This document shows positions 4,102 to 50,525 of a DNA stretch of 64,000 nucleotides, piece after piece (position 1 is the stretch's first letter; each line of letters starts with the position of its first letter). The notes under the pieces are model-generated. The model was given only the letters and a program-made list of their open reading frames with translations, had not been told where the DNA came from and made no database searches. Position numbers and translations under genes: made by a program. Origin of the DNA: Sediminicola luteus (GTDB lineage Bacteria; Bacteroidota; Bacteroidia; Flavobacteriales; Flavobacteriaceae); NCBI RefSeq assembly GCF_002514735.1, contig NZ_KZ300476.1:599872-663871 (forward strand), in the 5' to 3' direction.

Positions 4102-5013
4102 ATGACACTCAAGGAATTCGGAAACCTAAAGGCCAACTTTTTACAAACACCAAAACAGAAATGGTATTATGTTTTAAGTGTAGGAGTTTTTTCCGTTTTC
4201 TTCATTTTTGTGTATGAACCTTTTGGGGTGTCTTTAGATTATCTAGAATTCAATGCCGGCCCTTGGCAAATTTTCCTATTCTTAGCAAGTCAGGCCCTGA
4301 ATTTGTCCGTAGCTATAGCTTTTACCCGATTTATCATAGAACCTTTCCTACCCTGGAATATCGATACCATAAAAAAACAAGTCCACTTTTTCCTTTTCGA
4401 AATCTTGGTTATAATACTCACCTCTCCCATATTCATTATTCTTTTTTATTGGATTAACGGTCTGTCCCAAGAAAACGTAGTGTTGGATCAACCGCTTTGG
4501 CTCGAAATAGTCATGCGTTATTTCTTGTATTTTTTTGTGCTGATGTATCCTTTTTTGGCCAATGCACTTTTGGGCCACATCAAAGGATTACATTCTGAGA
4601 TAGAAGTTCTTGAAAAACATATTTTCACGGTAGCGGCCCAATATGCAGCAAACCCCATGCAACCCATTCAAATAAGAAATGAAAAGCATACCGAAACCTT
4701 GCAAATACTTCCTAAAAACCTACTTTATATAAAAAGTGACAACCAATATATAGAAATCTATTATCTGGAAGAAGGCCAACTACGTACCGCATTGATCAGA
4801 AACCGCTTAAAAATAGTACTGGAAGCCCTTCGAGACTACCCTATTAAACAATGCCACAGATCTTATGCGGTAAACCTATTGAACGTGCACCAACTTAAAA
4901 AATCAGAAGGCAAAACCTATATCTATATAAATACCCAACCGGTACAACAAATTCCGGTTTCCAAATCTTTTACAGACCAAATCCAAGGCACCTTTTCGGA
5001 GTACCGAAAATAA
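4102..5013 (+). CDS. Membrane-anchored LytTR-family DNA-binding protein (no receiver domain)
   Basis: The N-terminal ~170 aa are hydrophobic with several predicted TM helices. The C-terminal ~100 aa match the LytTR fold pattern ('LLYIKSDNQYIEIYYLEEGQL...RNRLKIVLEALRDYPIKQCHRSYAVNLLNV'). It is paralogous to ORF 20759..21667. Confidence 0.7.
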   Translation: MTLKEFGNLKANFLQTPKQKWYYVLSVGVFSVFFIFVYEPFGVSLDYLEFNAGPWQIFLFLASQALNLSVAIAFTRFIIEPFLPWNIDTIKKQVHFFLFEILVIILTSPIFIILFYWINGLSQENVVLDQPLWLEIVMRYFLYFFVLMYPFLANALLGHIKGLHSEIEVLEKHIFTVAAQYAANPMQPIQIRNEKHTETLQILPKNLLYIKSDNQYIEIYYLEEGQLRTALIRNRLKIVLEALRDYPIKQCHRSYAVNLLNVHQLKKSEGKTYIYINTQPVQQIPVSKSFTDQIQGTFSEYRK

Positions 5014-5175
5014 TGTATGTCGCTTTGCTTTTGTTAAGGCAATATTAAAATGATTAAGCGAGACTACAATTCACTCCATCAATACTACATTTCGCTCCAA
5101 AACCCCGATTTCCATGTAACAATATTGGGCTTGCCCCGTTAGTTTTGTCAGCAATTAAACCTAAAGCGAACACCT

Positions 5176-7530
5176 ATGAAAAAACAACTGCTGCTGCTTT
5201 TTCTGTTGCCTATTTTACTTCAGGCACAGGATAAATTCAGTTTAAGCGGGTCCTTAAAAGACCAAAGCAACGGAGAAACCATTTTTGGGGCCAACGTATT
5301 CTTTGAAGGCACCAATATCGGGGCCGTAACCAACGAATACGGCTTCTTTTCCCTAACCGCCCCACAGGGGGAATATACCCTTGTGGTAAGTTATATGGGA
5401 TATACCGACATTAAACAGACCGTTTCTTTGAACGCCAACCAAAAATTAAATTTGGAAATGGCGCCCGAAGCATCGCAATTGGAAGAAGTGGTCGTGGTAG
5501 CCGACGAGACCACCAAGACCAACATTAAAACGCCTCAAATGAGTACGGTGCAGTTAAAGGCAGAAACCATAAAGCAAATGCCCGTGGTTTTAGGTGAGGT
5601 AGACATTCTTAAATCGATACAAATGCTACCGGGGGTTACCAATAATGGCGAAGGCTCTTCGGGTTTCCATGTACGAGGGGGTGCCTCGGATCAAAACTTG
5701 GTGCTATTGGATGAAGCTATCATTTATAATACCTCTCACCTTTTTGGCTTCTTTTCAGTTTTCAATGCCGATGCCATCAAGGATATGAAACTGTATAAAG
5801 GGGGAATCCCTTCACAATTTGGCGGGCGTGTTTCTTCCGTACTCGATGTTCGTCAAAAAGACGGGAACAGTAAGGAGTTCAAACTAACCGGAGGCGTTGG
5901 TCTAGTAGCCAGCAGATTGGCCGCCGAAGCCCCACTGTTTAATGGTAAAGGTTCCTTTCTGTTGGCTGGCCGTGGATCTTATGCCCATCTTTTCCTAAAT
6001 GAAAACAAGGCCAATTTTTACGATGTCAACCTGAAGACGAATTACGAAATCAACGAGAACAACCGCCTCTATCTTTCCGGGTATTACGGTCGCGATGGGA
6101 TGGAATTCGGAAGTTCTTTTGAAAATGACTACGGTAACTTGTCGGGGAATTTAAGATGGAACCATATTTTCTCGGAACGCTTATTCTCCAACCTATCCCT
6201 AATCTATAGCAAATACGACTACCATTTCGTTTTTGACGATATAGGCCTTGACTGGGTCTCCGATATAGACAACTACAACCTAAAATATGACCTCAAATGG
6301 TATATGAACGACAAGATCAAGTTCGATTTTGGGGCCAGTACCATCAAATATGATTTTAACCCGGGAGAGGTTACCCCAACTGGGGAAGACTCTAGTGTTA
6401 ACTACCGTAAACTGGACGATAAAGAAGCTTTGGAGTCGGCCATTTATTTGGGCATGGAACATAAAATCTCGCCCAAGTTTACCGCCCAATACGGTATGCG
6501 CTACAGCCATTTTATACGCCAAGGCCCACAAAGCCCGAATACCTACGAAAACGACCAGCCGGTGGTATACAATGCCGAACAAGGCGTATACGAGAGAGGT
6601 ACTCCAAATGGCACCAAGGAATACGGAAGTGGGGATAACATAAAAACCTTCGGAAATTTTGAACCCCGATTGGCCCTTTCGTATCAATTGGACGAAAAAT
6701 CGTCGGTTAAGGCGAGCTATAACCGCATTGCCCAGTACCTACATTTAATCTCAAATACTACTTCGGCCACCCCTTTGGATGTTTGGGCCCCCAGTGGCGA
6801 ATTTATAGACCCCCAATTGGGCGACCAATACGCTATTGGGTACTTTAGAAATTTTGCCAACAATGCCTTTTCCATGGAAATCGAGGCCTATTATAAAACC
6901 ATTGACAACCGCTTGGACTATATAGATGGTGCCGATCTTATTGCCAACAACACCATAGAAACCGAGGTTTTGGCGGGTGAGACCCGTTCTTATGGTTTAG
7001 AACTACTGTTAAAGAAAAATACAGGTAGGCTCACCGGATGGCTGGCCTACACCTTATCTAAAGCAGAACAACGTACCCCCGGTGGTTCGGCCGGTGGCCC
7101 TGGGATAAACAACGGTGATTGGTACCGTACCTCTTACGACCGCACCCACGACCTTTCGCTTACGGCAAGTTACCAGTGGAATAAAAAATGGAGCTTTGGT
7201 GCCAATTTCGCTTTTCAGACCGGAAGGCCCATCACCTATCCTAACGGACAATTCGTTTATGAAGGCACTTCGGTGGCGACATTCTCAGATCGTAATGCCG
7301 ATCGTTTGCCCGCCTACCACCGTCTAGACCTGTCGGCTACCTATAGGCCTAACCGTAAACCCAACAATCGTTGGAAAGGCGAATGGGTATTCGGGATCTA
7401 TAATGTGTACAACCGCCATAATGCCGCCTCAATCAGTTTCGGACAAAATGAGGATACCGGCCTAAACGAAGCCTCTAAGACCTATATTTTTGGGATTTTG
7501 CCCGCCATTTCGTATAACTTTAAATTCTAA
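5176..7530 (+). CDS. TonB-dependent outer-membrane receptor with an N-terminal carboxypeptidase-regulatory-like domain
   Basis: Signal peptide 'MKKQLLLLFLLPILLQAQ'. CarbopepD_reg-like segment ('FSLSGSLKDQSNGETIFGANVFFEGTNIGAVTNEYGFFSL'), then plug-like region and long beta-barrel. C-terminal 'SYNFKF' with terminal Phe. Confidence 0.85.
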   Translation: MKKQLLLLFLLPILLQAQDKFSLSGSLKDQSNGETIFGANVFFEGTNIGAVTNEYGFFSLTAPQGEYTLVVSYMGYTDIKQTVSLNANQKLNLEMAPEASQLEEVVVVADETTKTNIKTPQMSTVQLKAETIKQMPVVLGEVDILKSIQMLPGVTNNGEGSSGFHVRGGASDQNLVLLDEAIIYNTSHLFGFFSVFNADAIKDMKLYKGGIPSQFGGRVSSVLDVRQKDGNSKEFKLTGGVGLVASRLAAEAPLFNGKGSFLLAGRGSYAHLFLNENKANFYDVNLKTNYEINENNRLYLSGYYGRDGMEFGSSFENDYGNLSGNLRWNHIFSERLFSNLSLIYSKYDYHFVFDDIGLDWVSDIDNYNLKYDLKWYMNDKIKFDFGASTIKYDFNPGEVTPTGEDSSVNYRKLDDKEALESAIYLGMEHKISPKFTAQYGMRYSHFIRQGPQSPNTYENDQPVVYNAEQGVYERGTPNGTKEYGSGDNIKTFGNFEPRLALSYQLDEKSSVKASYNRIAQYLHLISNTTSATPLDVWAPSGEFIDPQLGDQYAIGYFRNFANNAFSMEIEAYYKTIDNRLDYIDGADLIANNTIETEVLAGETRSYGLELLLKKNTGRLTGWLAYTLSKAEQRTPGGSAGGPGINNGDWYRTSYDRTHDLSLTASYQWNKKWSFGANFAFQTGRPITYPNGQFVYEGTSVATFSDRNADRLPAYHRLDLSATYRPNRKPNNRWKGEWVFGIYNVYNRHNAASISFGQNEDTGLNEASKTYIFGILPAISYNFKF

Positions 7531-14765: not shown

Positions 14766-14810
14766 GGAAATACGCATTTTGAGAAAACTTTAAAAAATCA
14801 TCGGTAAATT

Positions 14811-14972
14811 AGAGACTGTTTTGAAATGTGTGATTGGAATTTTTACAGGTTATTTTTGATGCCTTATAAGGCAAAATTTTTAAGCATAGCAGGGTTACGG
14901 TTTAAAATTTTTACGAAATAGGGCGCAAAAAGAAGCATAAAAAAACAATTGACATATTTCAAAACAGTCTCT
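14811..14972. repeat. MITE-like element, family 1, copy A (162 bp, 17-bp perfect terminal inverted repeats, no ORF)
   Basis: Left end 'agagactgttttgaaat' and right end 'atttcaaaacagtctct' are exact reverse complements. The internal sequence matches copy B at 36649..36850, including 'tttaagcatagcag.gttacggt' and 'aaaaaacaattgacatatttcaaaacagtctct'. Flanked by the direct repeat GGTAAAT (14803-14809 and 14975-14981). Confidence 0.8.
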
Positions 14973-14985
14973 AGGGTAAATCCAT

Positions 14986-36018: not shown

Positions 36019-36648
36019 ATGGGTTTATTGGAAAATCTACAATGGCGCTATGCCACTAAAAAATTCGACAACACTAAAAAAGTCTCTGAAGACGATATCA
36101 CTTTTCTAAAAAAAGCCATATCGCTGGCGGCCACCTCATACGGACTCGAAGCCTACGAGGTACTTATTATTGAAAACCAAGACATCAAAGACCGATTAAA
36201 AGATGCTTCTTGGGGACAGGCCCAAGTAAGTGATGCTTCGCATGTTTTTGTGTTTTGCAACAATACCAAAATATCGAACGAATTGATCGACGCCTATATG
36301 GATCGTAAATCAAATGACCAGGGCATTGCCAAGGAAAACCTTCAGGGTTATGGCGATTTTATGAAAAACACCTTGTTGGCCCTACCCGAAGACGAGGCGG
36401 CCCACTGGACGCGGCGCCAAACCTATATTGCCGGCGGCAACCTTATGGTGGCCTGTGCCGAACTTCAAATTGACTCCTGCCCCATGGAAGGCTTTGAAGC
36501 CGAAAAATACAATGAAATCCTCGAGTTGGACAAAGATGGCCTTAACGCATGTTTGGTAGTCCCAGTAGGGTATCGTTCTGAAGAAGACAACAACCAGCAT
36601 TTGCCCAAAACCAGAAAGTCGTTAGACCAAATGTTCCGTCACCTTTAA
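36019..36648 (+). CDS. Nitroreductase-family protein (NAD(P)H-dependent, NfsB-like)
   Basis: N-terminal 'RYATKKFD' FMN-binding motif of the nitroreductase family. ~209 aa. Confidence 0.75.
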   Translation: MGLLENLQWRYATKKFDNTKKVSEDDITFLKKAISLAATSYGLEAYEVLIIENQDIKDRLKDASWGQAQVSDASHVFVFCNNTKISNELIDAYMDRKSNDQGIAKENLQGYGDFMKNTLLALPEDEAAHWTRRQTYIAGGNLMVACAELQIDSCPMEGFEAEKYNEILELDKDGLNACLVVPVGYRSEEDNNQHLPKTRKSLDQMFRHL

Positions 36649-36850
36649 GAGACTGTTTTGAAATGTGTGATTGGAATTGTTTATAGGTCATTTTTCCTGC
36701 CTGTCGGCAGGCAGGGATGCCCTAGGAGGCAAAATTTTTAAGCATAGCAGCGTTACGGTCAAAAATTTTAACGAAATAGGGCGCAAACCTGCCAGCCGGC
36801 AGGCGGGAAGAAGTGTAAAAAAACAATTGACATATTTCAAAACAGTCTCT
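36649..36850. repeat. MITE-like element, family 1, copy B (202 bp) with two GC-rich palindromic insertions
   Basis: Begins immediately after the TAA stop (36646-36648) of the nitroreductase gene. Ends are 'agagactgttttgaaatgtgtgattggaat' and 'aaaaaaacaattgacatatttcaaaacagtctct'. Relative to copy A it carries extra hairpins 'cctgcctgtcggcaggcagg' and 'cctgccagccggcaggcgg'. Confidence 0.8.
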
Positions 36851-36913
36851 AAGGGCTAAATTTCTTGCAAGTAGTAATTGGAATACCGACCTTTAAGGGG
36901 TAATACCCAACGG

Positions 36914-37558: not shown

Positions 37559-37669
37559 TCTCGCGTAATCAACTTTTCGCACCCTTTAGTACATGAAAAA
37601 TCCAGACAGGATAGCTATTGACTACCCCATCTGGATTCACCATCTATGGAACACTGTGTGTGTCTATTT

Positions 37670-37832
37670 ATACCATTTCAATTTTGAGATTCAACCAATA
37701 AAAAAGCAGGGATTTTTTCTTTGGGCGAAAAAGAAAATTTAAGCATAGCCAAAGCTACGGTTCTATTTTATTTTGATGACCAAAGGTAAAAAGAACCATT
37801 TTTTATGTGGTATTTCAATGTTGAAATGGTAT
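37670..37832. repeat. MITE-like element, family 2, copy A (~162 bp, 12-bp terminal inverted repeats)
   Basis: 'ataccatttcaa' at the left end and 'ttgaaatggtat' at the right end. About 95% identical to 49281..49442. Its right terminus overlaps the stop codon (37832-37834) of the adjacent minus-strand gene. Confidence 0.8.
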
Positions 37833-38899
37833 TATCTATTAAAGGCGGGCCAATTTTGGTTGACCACCGATTCTGCATCCAACAGGCTTAACACTTCATC
37901 CGCAATATTCTCACTCAGTTCTAAATGCGTAGTAAAACCAACACAAGAAGCATTGATCTCGCCCAATACATATTTATCTTCACCGGTTTTCTTATCGGTA
38001 TCCAAGATAAAATCTGCGGTCCAGATCAAAGGCAGGTCGTAATTGCCCAACCTGCGCTGCATCATGGGCAGGGTGTTTTCGATTACCGCTACCAATTCGG
38101 GCCATTGGTCTGGCTTGTCGTAGCGGTATTTGGCACCTGAGAACAAGGTAGCGGAAAAAGCATCCGGCGTATCAGCAGGTTTTTTATGCACTACATTTAC
38201 CGCCTGATCGCGCAACATCAACACACGAATCTCTCCTTCCTTGATCCTCTCCAAAAAAGGCATATCCAACAGCATGCCGTTTTCCCCCTCCAAATATTGG
38301 ATACAGAACTCCAAGAACTCCTGAAGGGTCTTCTCTTCGGTATGGTTATCACGTGCTTCGGTCAGCTTTAATTTCGCCGTAAGCGGAATCGTCTTTTTGT
38401 ACTTGTCGGCATCGATTACCTCTACACGCCAAATACCTTCGCCTGTAGAACCTCGGTTTTGCTTAAGAACGCGAACCCCTTTTAGTAAGCTTTTTGGAAA
38501 ATTCTCTTTAAGGGCATCAAAATCATAATAGGTATACACATCTTCGGGTACCATATCGGTACCTTTTAGACGCTCTACCGAATTCTTGGCACCATAGGCC
38601 ACCATGGCATCTGGGTGTGGTAGCCCCTCTACCCCATTGTTAACCAATTCGCGAAGCATTTGGAAATAACCTACCTCATTGGGCAAGTTACCCGGATTTA
38701 CTCTACTGATATACGCATCGGCCTTGTTTTGCGTATGCCTATAAATTTCACCGCGATGTGCATCGTCATAAAAAACGATCTCGGCAGACCAGCCTCTCTT
38801 GTTCAACGATTCAATAATGGGTTTGGAGTCTCTGCGGTATCCATACTTCCCTTTGTCGGAACCTCCGCGAGCCTCAAAGATAACAACGTGTTTCTTCAT
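37832..38899 (-). CDS. Hypothetical protein, possibly an ATP-grasp-like fold
   Basis: 355-aa ORF. Segments 'VLKQNRGSTGEGIWRV' and 'YVLGEINASCVGFT' are reminiscent of ATP-grasp nucleotide-binding loops. No confident assignment. Confidence 0.35.
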   Translation of the reverse strand: MKKHVVIFEARGGSDKGKYGYRRDSKPIIESLNKRGWSAEIVFYDDAHRGEIYRHTQNKADAYISRVNPGNLPNEVGYFQMLRELVNNGVEGLPHPDAMVAYGAKNSVERLKGTDMVPEDVYTYYDFDALKENFPKSLLKGVRVLKQNRGSTGEGIWRVEVIDADKYKKTIPLTAKLKLTEARDNHTEEKTLQEFLEFCIQYLEGENGMLLDMPFLERIKEGEIRVLMLRDQAVNVVHKKPADTPDAFSATLFSGAKYRYDKPDQWPELVAVIENTLPMMQRRLGNYDLPLIWTADFILDTDKKTGEDKYVLGEINASCVGFTTHLELSENIADEVLSLLDAESVVNQNWPAFNR

Positions 38900-49165: not shown

Positions 49166-49280
49166 GAGGTACAAGCTGCGAAGTTGGAAGTACGAATTAC
49201 GAAATACCATTGCTCCTTTGGAAACCGGCATTTTAGCTTAATCCAAGATTACAACACTTCGTTTCTCCGGACTACGACTT

Positions 49281-49442
49281 ATACCATTTCAATTTTGAGA
49301 TACAACCAATAAAAAAGCAGGAATTTTTTCTTTGGGCGAAAAAGAAAATCTAAGCATAGCCAAAGCTACGGTTCTATTTTATTTTGATGGCCAAAGGTAA
49401 AAAGAACCATTTTTTAGGTGGTATTTCAATGTTGAAATGGTA
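49281..49442. repeat. MITE-like element, family 2, copy B
   Basis: Same TIRs as copy A ('ataccatttcaa' / 'ttgaaatggtat'). Its right terminus again overlaps the stop codon (49443-49445) of the adjacent minus-strand gene. Confidence 0.8.
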
Positions 49443-50525
49443 TTATTTTACATCTATACGATGCTCTATTATCTGTAGGGCACTTACGTTTTCATAATTG
49501 CGTTTTACAAAATCCAGGGCCAGCTCCATAATCTCGCCCATGTTTTGCGAACGCTTGAATTTCACATCGGAAGTAAGCTCGTAAATCTCTTTGCCCAATC
49601 TTTCGATATGTTCTGGCAAGGAGATTTCGTCTTCTTTACAGATTTTGATGAGTTTTGCGATACGCTTTTCATAACTCATGATCCTTTTGGCCACAATAGA
49701 CCGTTCTTCCAATTTGTATTGGTCTACCGAATGCTTTTGAAGCTTTCCTTGCACCAATTGCACCATTTTCAGGTTCTCTTTAAAAAACTGTGGCCGATAG
49801 ACCTTCAGCTTGCCTTCAAAACATTGCTGATCAAAATCAATCGCCCGTATCTTATATACCACATGATCAAAATCGTGGGTAGGTACTATTACATAATTAT
49901 ACGAACGCATATCACCCAAAAGTCGAATCATGGCCCGTTCGTTGAACTTTACGAATTCTTTGGCCAACTGGGCCTTTTCAGACTCAGAACATTTGGGTAG
50001 CATATTCTTAATGAACTCATCGCCAGGTATACCCGCAATATGCTCTTCAATCAAGGTGTCTTTATACACCAAAAAGTTCAGGTTATAAGGCGATAACATA
50101 TGCTCCAATTCCAGCCCATATACCCGTGAAGCATCTGTTTTCTTTACGTAAAAATAGGTATAGTTATCATTAAGTATGTTTCGTACCTTAATGCGAAAAG
50201 GCTTGGAGTTACCAAAAGTACAGTAGTCAACAGCATCTACGTTCAGGTATTGGATAATCTCTTCCCCACCATTGGAATGCAAGATAGAATACACCTTTTT
50301 TAGACTAAGATCGATCTCTTCCCGTTCAAATTCAGAATAGTACACACGAATCCAGAGGGTATCTTCCCCTTCATCGTCATACACGGTAATGGCCCCTGCA
50401 AAACGCAATAGATCTTCATAGAATACCGGAATTTCGATTTTTCTGTTGTAATGCTCTAAATAATCATCAAGCTTAGCATTGACCGGAAAAGCCGGCTTTT
50501 TCTTGGACATTAACTTCTCTCCCAT
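49443..50525 (-). CDS. Hypothetical protein
   Basis: 360-aa ORF with coding-like composition. No recognised domain. Confidence 0.4.
   Translation of the reverse strand: MGEKLMSKKKPAFPVNAKLDDYLEHYNRKIEIPVFYEDLLRFAGAITVYDDEGEDTLWIRVYYSEFEREEIDLSLKKVYSILHSNGGEEIIQYLNVDAVDYCTFGNSKPFRIKVRNILNDNYTYFYVKKTDASRVYGLELEHMLSPYNLNFLVYKDTLIEEHIAGIPGDEFIKNMLPKCSESEKAQLAKEFVKFNERAMIRLLGDMRSYNYVIVPTHDFDHVVYKIRAIDFDQQCFEGKLKVYRPQFFKENLKMVQLVQGKLQKHSVDQYKLEERSIVAKRIMSYEKRIAKLIKICKEDEISLPEHIERLGKEIYELTSDVKFKRSQNMGEIMELALDFVKRNYENVSALQIIEHRIDVK

Follow-up and report, generated by a model that had tools for sequence, protein, structure and literature searches.

Within the stretch of Sediminicola luteus DNA analysed here (64 kb in all, referred to below as the window), the 17-mer AGAGACTGTTTTGAAAT has four exact matches, at 14811-14827 (+), 14956-14972 (-), 36648-36664 (+) and 36834-36850 (-), which form two inverted pairs. 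Shuffled sequences give an expectation of 0.24 matches, and no shuffle contained four. The two segments bounded by these pairs, copies A and B of a repeat family that we call F1, align from end to end, the large differences being two 20-bp insertions that are present only in copy B. Both copies lie between ORFs, and the only ORFs that overlap F1 elements are short and unconserved. The perfect 17-bp inverted ends, the conserved interior and the non-coding location of both copies, all described in an earlier note on this DNA, are thus confirmed.

The element proper of copy A (GAGACTG...CAGTCTC; 14812-14971, + strand) is 160 nt long and forms a near-complete imperfect hairpin, with a predicted RNA folding energy of -58.1 kcal/mol (z = -9.96); it matches the family profile with an E-value of 2e-43 (nhmmer). 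Its left terminal inverted repeat (14812-14827, +) falls in alignment columns that are invariant, or nearly so, across 35 copies, and its right terminal inverted repeat (14956-14971, -), which matches the 17-mer, likewise occupies conserved columns. The tip of the hairpin, TAAGCATAGC-AGG-GTTACGGTT (14881-14902, +), comprises a 4-bp stem, TAGC/GTTA, set within conserved, imperfectly paired AAGCA/CGGTT flanks. On the left side the element is preceded by its target triplet TTA (14809-14811), the TA of which is repeated on the right, where the flank reads TAG (14972-14974). As the two flanks match in TA alone, the duplication at copy A either is 2 bp long or was 3 bp and has since mutated.

Copy B (36649-36849, +) is 201 nt long, folds at -99.6 kcal/mol (z = -12.7), matches the family profile with an E-value of 3e-35 (nhmmer) and has the tip TAAGCATAGC-AGC-GTTACGGT (36739-36759, +). 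It is bordered by a complete TAA duplication, at 36646-36648 (+) on the left and 36850-36852 on the right, and the left TAA doubles as the stop codon of a nitroreductase-family ORF (36019-36648). The earlier note placed the start of this copy on the nucleotide following the stop codon; the 17-mer by which it defined the element has its first base at 36648, the final A of that codon. The two insertions are GC-rich hairpins of the CCTGCC-N4-GGCAGG type. Module 1 (CCTGCCTGTCGGCAGGCAGG, 36696-36715, +) interrupts the left arm at its conserved T-run, a position that it also occupies in the copies at loci L009, L104 and L039, and module 2 (CCTGCCAGCCGGCAGGCGGG, 36788-36807, +) is in the right arm, at the mirror position. 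The two modules are complementary to each other at 17 of 20 positions and are paired together in the predicted fold.

The same tip is found in two further elements in the window, which differ from F1 in their ends and are assigned to a second family, F2. F2 copy A (37671-37831, +), with the ends TACCATTTCAA.../...TTGAAATGGTA, and F2 copy B (49282-49442, +) are each 161 nt in length. Both are flanked by TTA, at 37668-37670 and 37832-37834 for copy A and at 49279-49281 and 49443-49445 for copy B, and in each case the right-hand TTA is the stop codon of a minus-strand ORF (37835-38899 and 49446-50525, respectively). The family profile identifies exactly four members in the window, two of F1 and two of F2, all on the + strand. 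F1 and F2 are not independent, since they have the tip, the length and the TWA duplication in common.

When the 21-nt end of F1, AGAGACTGTTTTGAAATRTGT, was compared with reference genomes, one per species, at least 115 matching stretches were found. The matches listed include 77 complete F1 copies of 67-279 nt, most of them about 160-165 nt (mode 162-164), and in the loci among these matches no two ends were paired at a distance greater than approximately 280 nt. The count of two copies given in the earlier note therefore holds inside the window and fails beyond it, and the possibility raised there that only two exist genome-wide is at odds with the abundance of matching stretches in other genomes. 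Cultured carriers are Maribacter halichondriae Hal144, with at least six loci in its complete genome (NZ_CP107030.1), Algibacter agarivorans JCM 18285 and Allomuricauda sp. d1. The carriers also include MAGs of Ulvibacterium, Aggregatimonas, Saonia, Pricia and Aurantibacter, and more than 30 loci are present in one Flavobacteriales MAG. Among the complete carrier sequences are Ulvibacterium NZ_OZ245846.1 and Saprospiraceae OZ244935.1. The class Saprospiria contributes three Saprospiraceae MAGs and one Lewinella MAG, and the 21-nt ends are identical between Flavobacteriia and Saprospiria. A contig binned as Draconibacterium also matches; being 2.7 kb long it is easily mis-binned, and it is weak evidence for that reason. 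Many MAG contigs from marine Bacteroidota terminate within a copy, in line with what a repeat that breaks assemblies would produce.

Like the copies in the window, most F1 copies are intergenic (55 of the 62 that have ORF calls on both sides, among the matches listed), and they lie a few to tens of bases from gene ends. BLAST searches of plasmid and phage collections with the element gave no real matches. In viral contigs, the repeat architecture is missing from all four matches to the tip (L001-L004), of which two or more lie in sequence that seems unrelated. Two matches to the end (L122 and L123) are due to chance, the element interior being absent.

Tabulation of the flanks of the copies among the matches listed showed that the element proper, GAGACTG...CAGTCTC, is accompanied by a 3-bp direct repeat. 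This repeat is identical on the two sides in 54 of 76 such copies (TTA in 27, TAA in 24, and TGA, TCA and TAT in one each), and the two flanks agree in the middle base of the triplet in 65 of the 76. An extension of the inverted repeat would require complementary bases at this position, so the equality of the middle base identifies a true repeat. Other repeat lengths or offsets produced at most eight matches each in the same 76 copies. The wider target preference is YTWAR, and apart from TWA the flanks of F1 copies are unrelated to one another.

A different duplication, the 7-bp repeat GGTAAAT, had been proposed for copy A and was expected to recur at other copies. GGTAAAT is indeed present to the left (14803-14809) and to the right (14975-14981) of copy A, with neither occurrence touching an end of the element. 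A 7-bp flank repeat is found in at most one of the 76 copies, as against 54 with the 3-bp TWA repeat. The proposal was also rejected on the evidence of locus L120, from a relative in which the flanking protein is 96% identical. This locus is the empty site of copy A, and it already contains both halves of the supposed duplication, as GGTAATT and GGTCAGT. The empty site reads ...atcggtaatTTAgggtcagtcctcATG (around the target triplet, ...ggtaatTTAgggtc...), and the filled site in the window reads ...atcggtaaatTA(GAGAC...GTCTC)TAgggtaaatccatATG. Either copy A was inserted here or it has been lost precisely from the relative, and at least TA was duplicated. The protein beside copy A has this one match at 96% identity, on a Logan contig, and otherwise only matches of about 60% (for example in Winogradskyella); a look-up for an exact match to it found no entry. 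A second case of presence and absence is provided by L019 of M. halichondriae, which is filled, and the orthologous L007, which is without a copy. The copy at L019 sits after a terminator-like hairpin. No empty site was found for copy B, for which there is no close relative, the best match being 64% identical.

Stop codons serve as the TWA target in three of the four elements in the window (F1 copy B and both F2 copies). Overall, 20 of 106 insertions use a stop codon where 7.6 are expected, in a control that counts coding TWA sites, and this excess may simply reflect the loss of insertions within genes.

F1 thus combines inverted ends that exceed the usual 10-15 bp minimum, a duplication of fixed length, a small non-coding body and dispersed copies with insertion polymorphism, which are features by which MITEs are recognised. 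It is a genuine MITE family, widespread in marine Bacteroidota. The suggestion in the earlier note of a non-autonomous, MITE-like mobile element is borne out by the dispersed family, its inverted ends, its consistent duplication and the two cases of presence and absence at orthologous sites.

The 22-nt hairpin tip, TAAGCATAGC-N3-4-GCTACGGTT, extends well beyond F1 and F2, being common to at least 10 families that have different ends. A scan of metagenomes by the tip alone yielded at least 120 stretches; the elements in them are about 160 nt long, and their termini are of 10 or more kinds. The termini attached to the tip include GGCAAATTAAAT..., GGCAAAGTGTAAG..., GGGTTTGCGCAAG..., GGGATAGCTCAT..., GAGTCTGTTTAAG..., AAAGCTGTGAAAG..., GTAGTGCGTTC... 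and TACCAAT..., in addition to those of F1 itself. In a set selected in this manner the tip is constant by design of the search, and the result lies in the variety of ends that are joined to it; the tip is also present in most copies that were chosen by their ends. An identical TWA abuts the inverted repeat in 46 of 72 tip-found elements among the matches listed (control mean 8.3, maximum 16). Conservation across 41 non-redundant members is confined to three islands: the tip, a left-arm ATTTTTT run and its right-arm partner, GAAAAAG. The terminal 10-20 nt differ from family to family and follow a common pattern, a G-rich start and then AAGAATAAG-like bases. In several copies the stem of the tip, TAGC/GCTA, has been swapped for TCCGCC/GGCGGA with retention of the imperfectly paired AAGCA/CGGTT flanks. 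A few copies have no tip and still possess intact ends and the duplication (L027, of 67 nt, and L057, L073 and L075, of 96-98 nt). We read the superfamily as one old lineage, both ends of which have co-evolved with different transposases. The ends of a plain MITE are expected to be its most conserved part; here, in contrast, it is the tip that crosses families. Binding of a transposase to the termini does not account for a tip common to families with differing ends.

GC-rich modules such as those in copy B recur throughout the family. Three types, CCYGCC...GGCRGG, TCCGCC...GGCGGA and TCCCGA...TCGGGA, are found in many copies, singly or several together and at varied positions; they are 16-23 nt in length and often lie at a T-run or an A-run. 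In a dozen copies a longer module, of about 70 nt (CAGGGCCGAATGAAAAGGCCAACGATTTGGCCTTTGA...), stands in for one right-arm segment. Among the hairpins of the CCYGCC type in the 1.62 Mb of loci centred on the MITEs, 18 lie within 170 nt of an end or of a motif resembling the tip; the other 12 are not so placed, and several of them fall inside other repeats. A plain copy at L052 corresponds to a copy with three extra modules at L074, the two sites being possibly orthologous. The inserts in copy B are instances of this general secondary expansion; the earlier note was right to attribute the greater length of copy B to two GC-rich hairpins, and hairpins of this sort are not peculiar to that copy.

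The pairing of the two arms was analysed for 48 predicted pairs in 35 canonical copies, in which 97.1% of the cells are standard pairs. Changes on both sides of the pair are seen in 19 pairs, as against 11.5 +/- 1.7 in shuffles (none of 500 reaches 19) and 7-11 when the partners are slid. Several mismatches persist as mismatches across subfamilies, and this is evidence against a mere homogenisation of one arm by the other. The structure is also asymmetric with respect to strand: RNA of the + strand (the orientation of copy A) folds better than its complement in 34 of the 35 copies (mean energies -59.4 and -48.5 kcal/mol), these 35 copies being related to one another. When G.T and A.C are treated alike, they account for 199 and 131 cells and for 33 and 20 column pairs, respectively. 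An excess of G.U was rejected as proof of a role for RNA, because the skew is modest under this equal pairing definition.

Orientation relative to neighbouring genes is biased in the same direction in two data sets. Between tandem genes the element is co-oriented rather than opposed by 28:10 in the genome set and by 24:13 in an independent metagenome set, both with crude ORF calls, giving 52:23 over both; whether it is the upstream or the downstream gene that is tracked is inconsistent between the two sets. Rfam 15 gave no hits in the window and likewise nothing in other members, the element itself matching only plant microRNA-precursor hairpins below threshold (best score 34.7 bits, threshold 119). 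Nor was support found for a canonical terminator, as the hairpin is not followed by a conserved T-run. Taken together, the compensatory changes and the greater stability of one strand indicate that the hairpin probably matters as a folded single strand, and they suggest selection on that strand, most simply as read-through RNA.

The nature of the ends and of the duplication bears on the enzyme involved. Elements of the ISL2, IS1031 and IS427 groups in ISfinder have 2-4-bp duplications and ends that begin with GAG or GG. A TWA duplication is a hallmark of PIF/Harbinger elements, which are relatives of bacterial IS5 (PMC4482050), and Bacteroidota contain elements of the ISL2, IS1031 and IS427 groups of the IS5 family (PMC3196728). 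The TWA duplication and the G-initial ends of F1 point to a transposase of this type, and we infer that the mobilising enzyme is an IS5 / PIF-Harbinger-type DDE transposase that acts in trans, 3-bp duplications of TWA or TNA being what this group is known for. The autonomous IS with the same ends that the earlier note envisaged did not appear in the 1.62 Mb of loci; as these loci were selected around MITEs, the absence of a transposase from them is a weak negative. Lone ends in these loci are just solo remnants of 20-45 nt or truncated copies, followed by ordinary genes and by no IS5-type transposase. Pairs of ends 500-2500 bp apart, found under relaxed matching, enclose no transposase, and in the 1.62 Mb no pairs at spacings of 0.4-3 kb were seen for any of 13 end types. 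No multi-copy ORF was detected among the 1993 ORFs of the loci. A screen for transposase motifs returned a degenerate, sub-threshold DDE_Tnp_1 fragment (L069) and an IS110-family gene (L107), neither of them between F1 ends.

The explanation that we regard as probable is that F1 is a hairpin element mobilised in trans, which inserts at TWA, belongs to a superfamily sharing one tip, and has a hairpin that is probably of importance as a folded strand as well. The ends, GAGACTGTTTTGAAAT and its reverse complement, would presumably be bound by a transposase encoded elsewhere, which would direct insertion to TWA triplets within short intergenic regions, with duplication of the triplet. The folded strand would most likely have its role as RNA read through from neighbouring genes, or in transposition itself.

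Compatible with this explanation is one in which F1 is mainly a structured intergenic repeat used by the host, comparable to ERIC, REP/BIME or Correia elements. An imperfect RNA hairpin of about 75 bp, made by read-through from adjacent genes, would then block exonucleases or be cleaved by RNase III, thereby setting the stability or the uncoupling of transcripts, and transposition would be merely the means of spread. The compensatory changes that preserve the hairpin, the mismatches kept across subfamilies, the near-uniform advantage of the + strand RNA, the co-orientation of the stable strand with tandem genes, the closeness of copies to gene ends and the retention of the tip across families with differing ends all agree with such a use. 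Against it stand the lack of an Rfam match and of a canonical terminator, and an orientation bias that is moderate and inconsistent in its details. The co-variation of the arms could also arise by template switching at a quasi-palindrome, or because both ends must fit one transposase, and the orthologous sites of relatives are without copies, showing that no individual copy is required. On balance we hold host use to be a genuine possibility, although a rather doubtful one.

A further view, which we consider fairly unlikely, is that the hairpin with its constant tip is a functional unit by itself. It would be the structure recognised by a hitherto undescribed mobilisation system, directed to TWA, that reads a folded single strand, or else an RNA-regulatory module that marine Bacteroidota disperse between genes by means of exchangeable transposon ends. 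If this were true, the 10 or more end families would all carry the same conserved cargo and would not be the usual deletion derivatives of ISs. In another proposal, an enzyme not of the IS5 type would recognise the tip, and not the ends, on a folded single strand and insert the element at TWA. Recombinases that recognise hairpins act on the ends of IS200/IS605 and on the attC sites of integrons. Such an enzyme would account for the sharing of one tip, the TWA duplication and a near-equal length by at least 10 families with differing termini, for the survival of the AAGCA/CGGTT flanks, with their conserved A.C and G.G mismatches, when the stem is replaced, and for the strand-asymmetric structure, and it is in keeping with the failure to find a classical transposase partner in the 1.62 Mb of loci. 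However, the terminal 16-21 bases of F1 are conserved far above the interior, even across classes, which is the signature of transposase binding, and the ends of differing families still follow one pattern (G-rich, then AAGAATAAG-like). The single-strand systems that depend on hairpins are not known to have either target duplication or terminal inverted repeats, and the tip-less copies L027, L057, L073 and L075 retain both their ends and the duplication. We therefore judge recognition through the tip by an enzyme of this kind to be decidedly unlikely.

It is very improbable that the element acts through a promoter of its own, whether to produce a small RNA or as a mobile promoter for the downstream gene. 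The motif TATTTTTG, which is present in the left arm of about half of the F1 copies, does fit the -7 consensus of Bacteroidota, TAnnTTTG, and the downstream gene is co-oriented by 43:19 in the genome set, often only 5-40 nt away. But the first base of the box co-varies with its partner (U-A in 15 cases, C-G in 12, U-G in 6), so that it is retained as a member of a pair rather than as a promoter base. A -33 TTTG at the proper spacing is absent, the motif is missing from the other families of the superfamily, and the downstream bias is 36:32 in the metagenome set, i.e. it was not replicated. Finally, local or segmental duplication or a chance palindrome, with no mobile family, would suit the presence of just two F1 copies in the 64-kb window, both on the + strand, but is almost certainly wrong and was rejected in view of the matching stretches elsewhere, with 77 complete copies among those listed, dispersed in unrelated contexts, of flanks that share TWA alone, and of the empty sites.

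The trans-mobilised, TWA-inserting hairpin element that we favour is of a known kind. Tourist-like PIF/Harbinger MITEs and IS5-derived bacterial MITEs resemble F1 in their small size, lack of coding capacity, inverted repeats and TWA duplication (PMC4482050). They are also alike in G-rich starts to the ends, high copy number, insertion adjacent to genes and formation of a hairpin by the whole element. The F1 superfamily differs in joining many types of end to one tip and one length, which is undescribed for those MITEs. In Neisseria, Correia elements (CREE/NEMIS) of about 100-160 bp have inverted ends, a short duplication of AT type and hundreds of intergenic copies; no transposase is known for them, and they are co-transcribed with neighbouring genes into hairpins that RNase III cleaves. 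They belong to another phylum, have a different sequence and duplicate TA where F1 duplicates TWA; phylum and duplication speak against counting F1 as one of them. They are also neither near-complete palindromes nor in possession of a tip common to families of differing ends.

The ERIC/IRU elements of enterobacteria are imperfect palindromes over their whole length of about 127 bp, intergenic and transcribed, and have variants lengthened by internal insertions at fixed sites, which copy B and other expanded F1 copies resemble. ERIC, likewise from another phylum, is not known to have a well-defined TWA duplication and has no sequence relationship to F1, in which the insertions are short GC-rich hairpins and the module of about 70 nt. 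The nested GC hairpins recall the GC clusters of yeast mitochondria and the palindromic elements of Rickettsia, which are GC-rich palindromes scattered through AT-rich non-coding DNA, often within repeats; the modules nested in F1 are just 16-23 nt, and the likeness is one of resemblance only. Membership of a REP/BOX type, the other option offered by the earlier note, is contradicted by the size, the inverted ends and the target duplication: REP/BIME sequences are palindromes of 20-40 nt with a GTAG-type head, linked to RAYT and without TIR or TSD, unlike the 160-nt F1 with its 17-bp ends and TWA. PATEs derived from IS200/IS605 have subterminal hairpins and no TIR or TSD, whereas F1 has both. 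In the literature searched, no published description of F1 was found, and the sequences of its end and tip appeared only as unrelated primers. The kind of element is known; what is unusual is that the tip, exchangeable ends, arms that co-vary and nested GC hairpins occur together.

A large automated census lists many MITEs in Bacteroidota and finds them to be mostly genus-specific (PMC11602168). F1 contrasts with this genus-specificity in having identical 21-nt ends in two classes, and it offers a ready marker of strain-level variation. The pattern of tip and ends, the co-varying arms and the bias in strand and orientation suggest that the hairpin is under selection beyond what transposase binding would impose. 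Insertions that reuse a stop codon place a strong hairpin at the end of a gene, where it could alter the 3' ends of transcripts.

The window contains a second repeat family, F2, represented by two 161-nt copies (37671-37831 and 49282-49442) that are 97% identical to each other and have the termini TACCATTTCAA/TTGAAATGGTA. F2 is of the same length as F1, the MITE-like family with GAGACTG...CAGTCTC ends, and has its hairpin tip and TTA duplication in common with it; many relatives of F2 with TACCAAT-type ends are present in marine metagenomes. For three of the four copies in the window, the triplet that was duplicated serves as the TAA stop codon of a neighbouring gene (36646-36648, 37832-37834 and 49443-49445). 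Across all 106 elements a stop-codon triplet is duplicated in 20, against 7.6 expected when any TWA within 60 nt is taken as a possible target and coding sites are included in the control. Because the control includes coding sites, loss of insertions within genes may be the sole cause of this excess.

The tip pattern, a conserved 22-nt hairpin apex, is also found at three loci with no inverted repeat around it (L147:~1754, L178:~2192 and L195:~3387), where it lies within a conserved 130-codon ORF common to these three metagenome contigs and is probably a chance match within a gene family. A short contig opens with the copy at L103:47-210, whose 20-nt flanks are exactly reverse-complementary to each other, probably a fold-back assembly artefact at the palindromic element.

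Solo terminal repeats, in which 20-45 nt of an F1 end is followed directly by unrelated sequence, often the start of a gene, were observed at L016:3906, L023:3560, L035:7931, L042:560, L083:5736 and L119:4165, among others. These are either what is left of copies that were deleted or the products of unusual excision. At two loci (L099:1144-3130 and L025:2682-3990) an ORF lies between an F1 copy and an F1 end in inverted orientation, a layout resembling that of a composite transposon. At locus L107 a gene for an IS110-family transposase (4276-5046; Transposase_20, E 6e-16) is situated 140 nt away from an F1 copy at 5185-5348. Palindromic repeats are a known target of some IS110/IS1111 elements.

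In many copies from different genomes one and the same right-arm segment is substituted by a ~70-nt module, CAGGGCCGAATGAAAAGGCCAACGATTTGGCCTTTGA...GCCAGATGGGGCGTTGGC, for which Rfam gave no match. Its carriers include L087:3403-3616, L092:760-973 and L100:138-375, together with loci L068, L076, L080, L105, L108, L116, L104, L046 and L132.

F1 copies in the same orientation are found in two different species (L052:1332-1495 and L074:1268-1492), downstream of genes that are ~80% identical. They possibly represent one old insertion passed on vertically, since when the L074 copy may have acquired three GC-rich modules. Such short GC-rich hairpins, of the types CCTGCC-N-GGCAGG, TCCGCC-N-GGCGGA and TCCCGA-N-TCGGGA, are nested within many F1 copies (for example L046:2400-2678, as well as that of L074) and are present in other repeats too, with sites at L026:1304, L119:3273, L113:640 and 806, and L076:2891. 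They look like an independent mini-palindrome class of AT-rich intergenic DNA.
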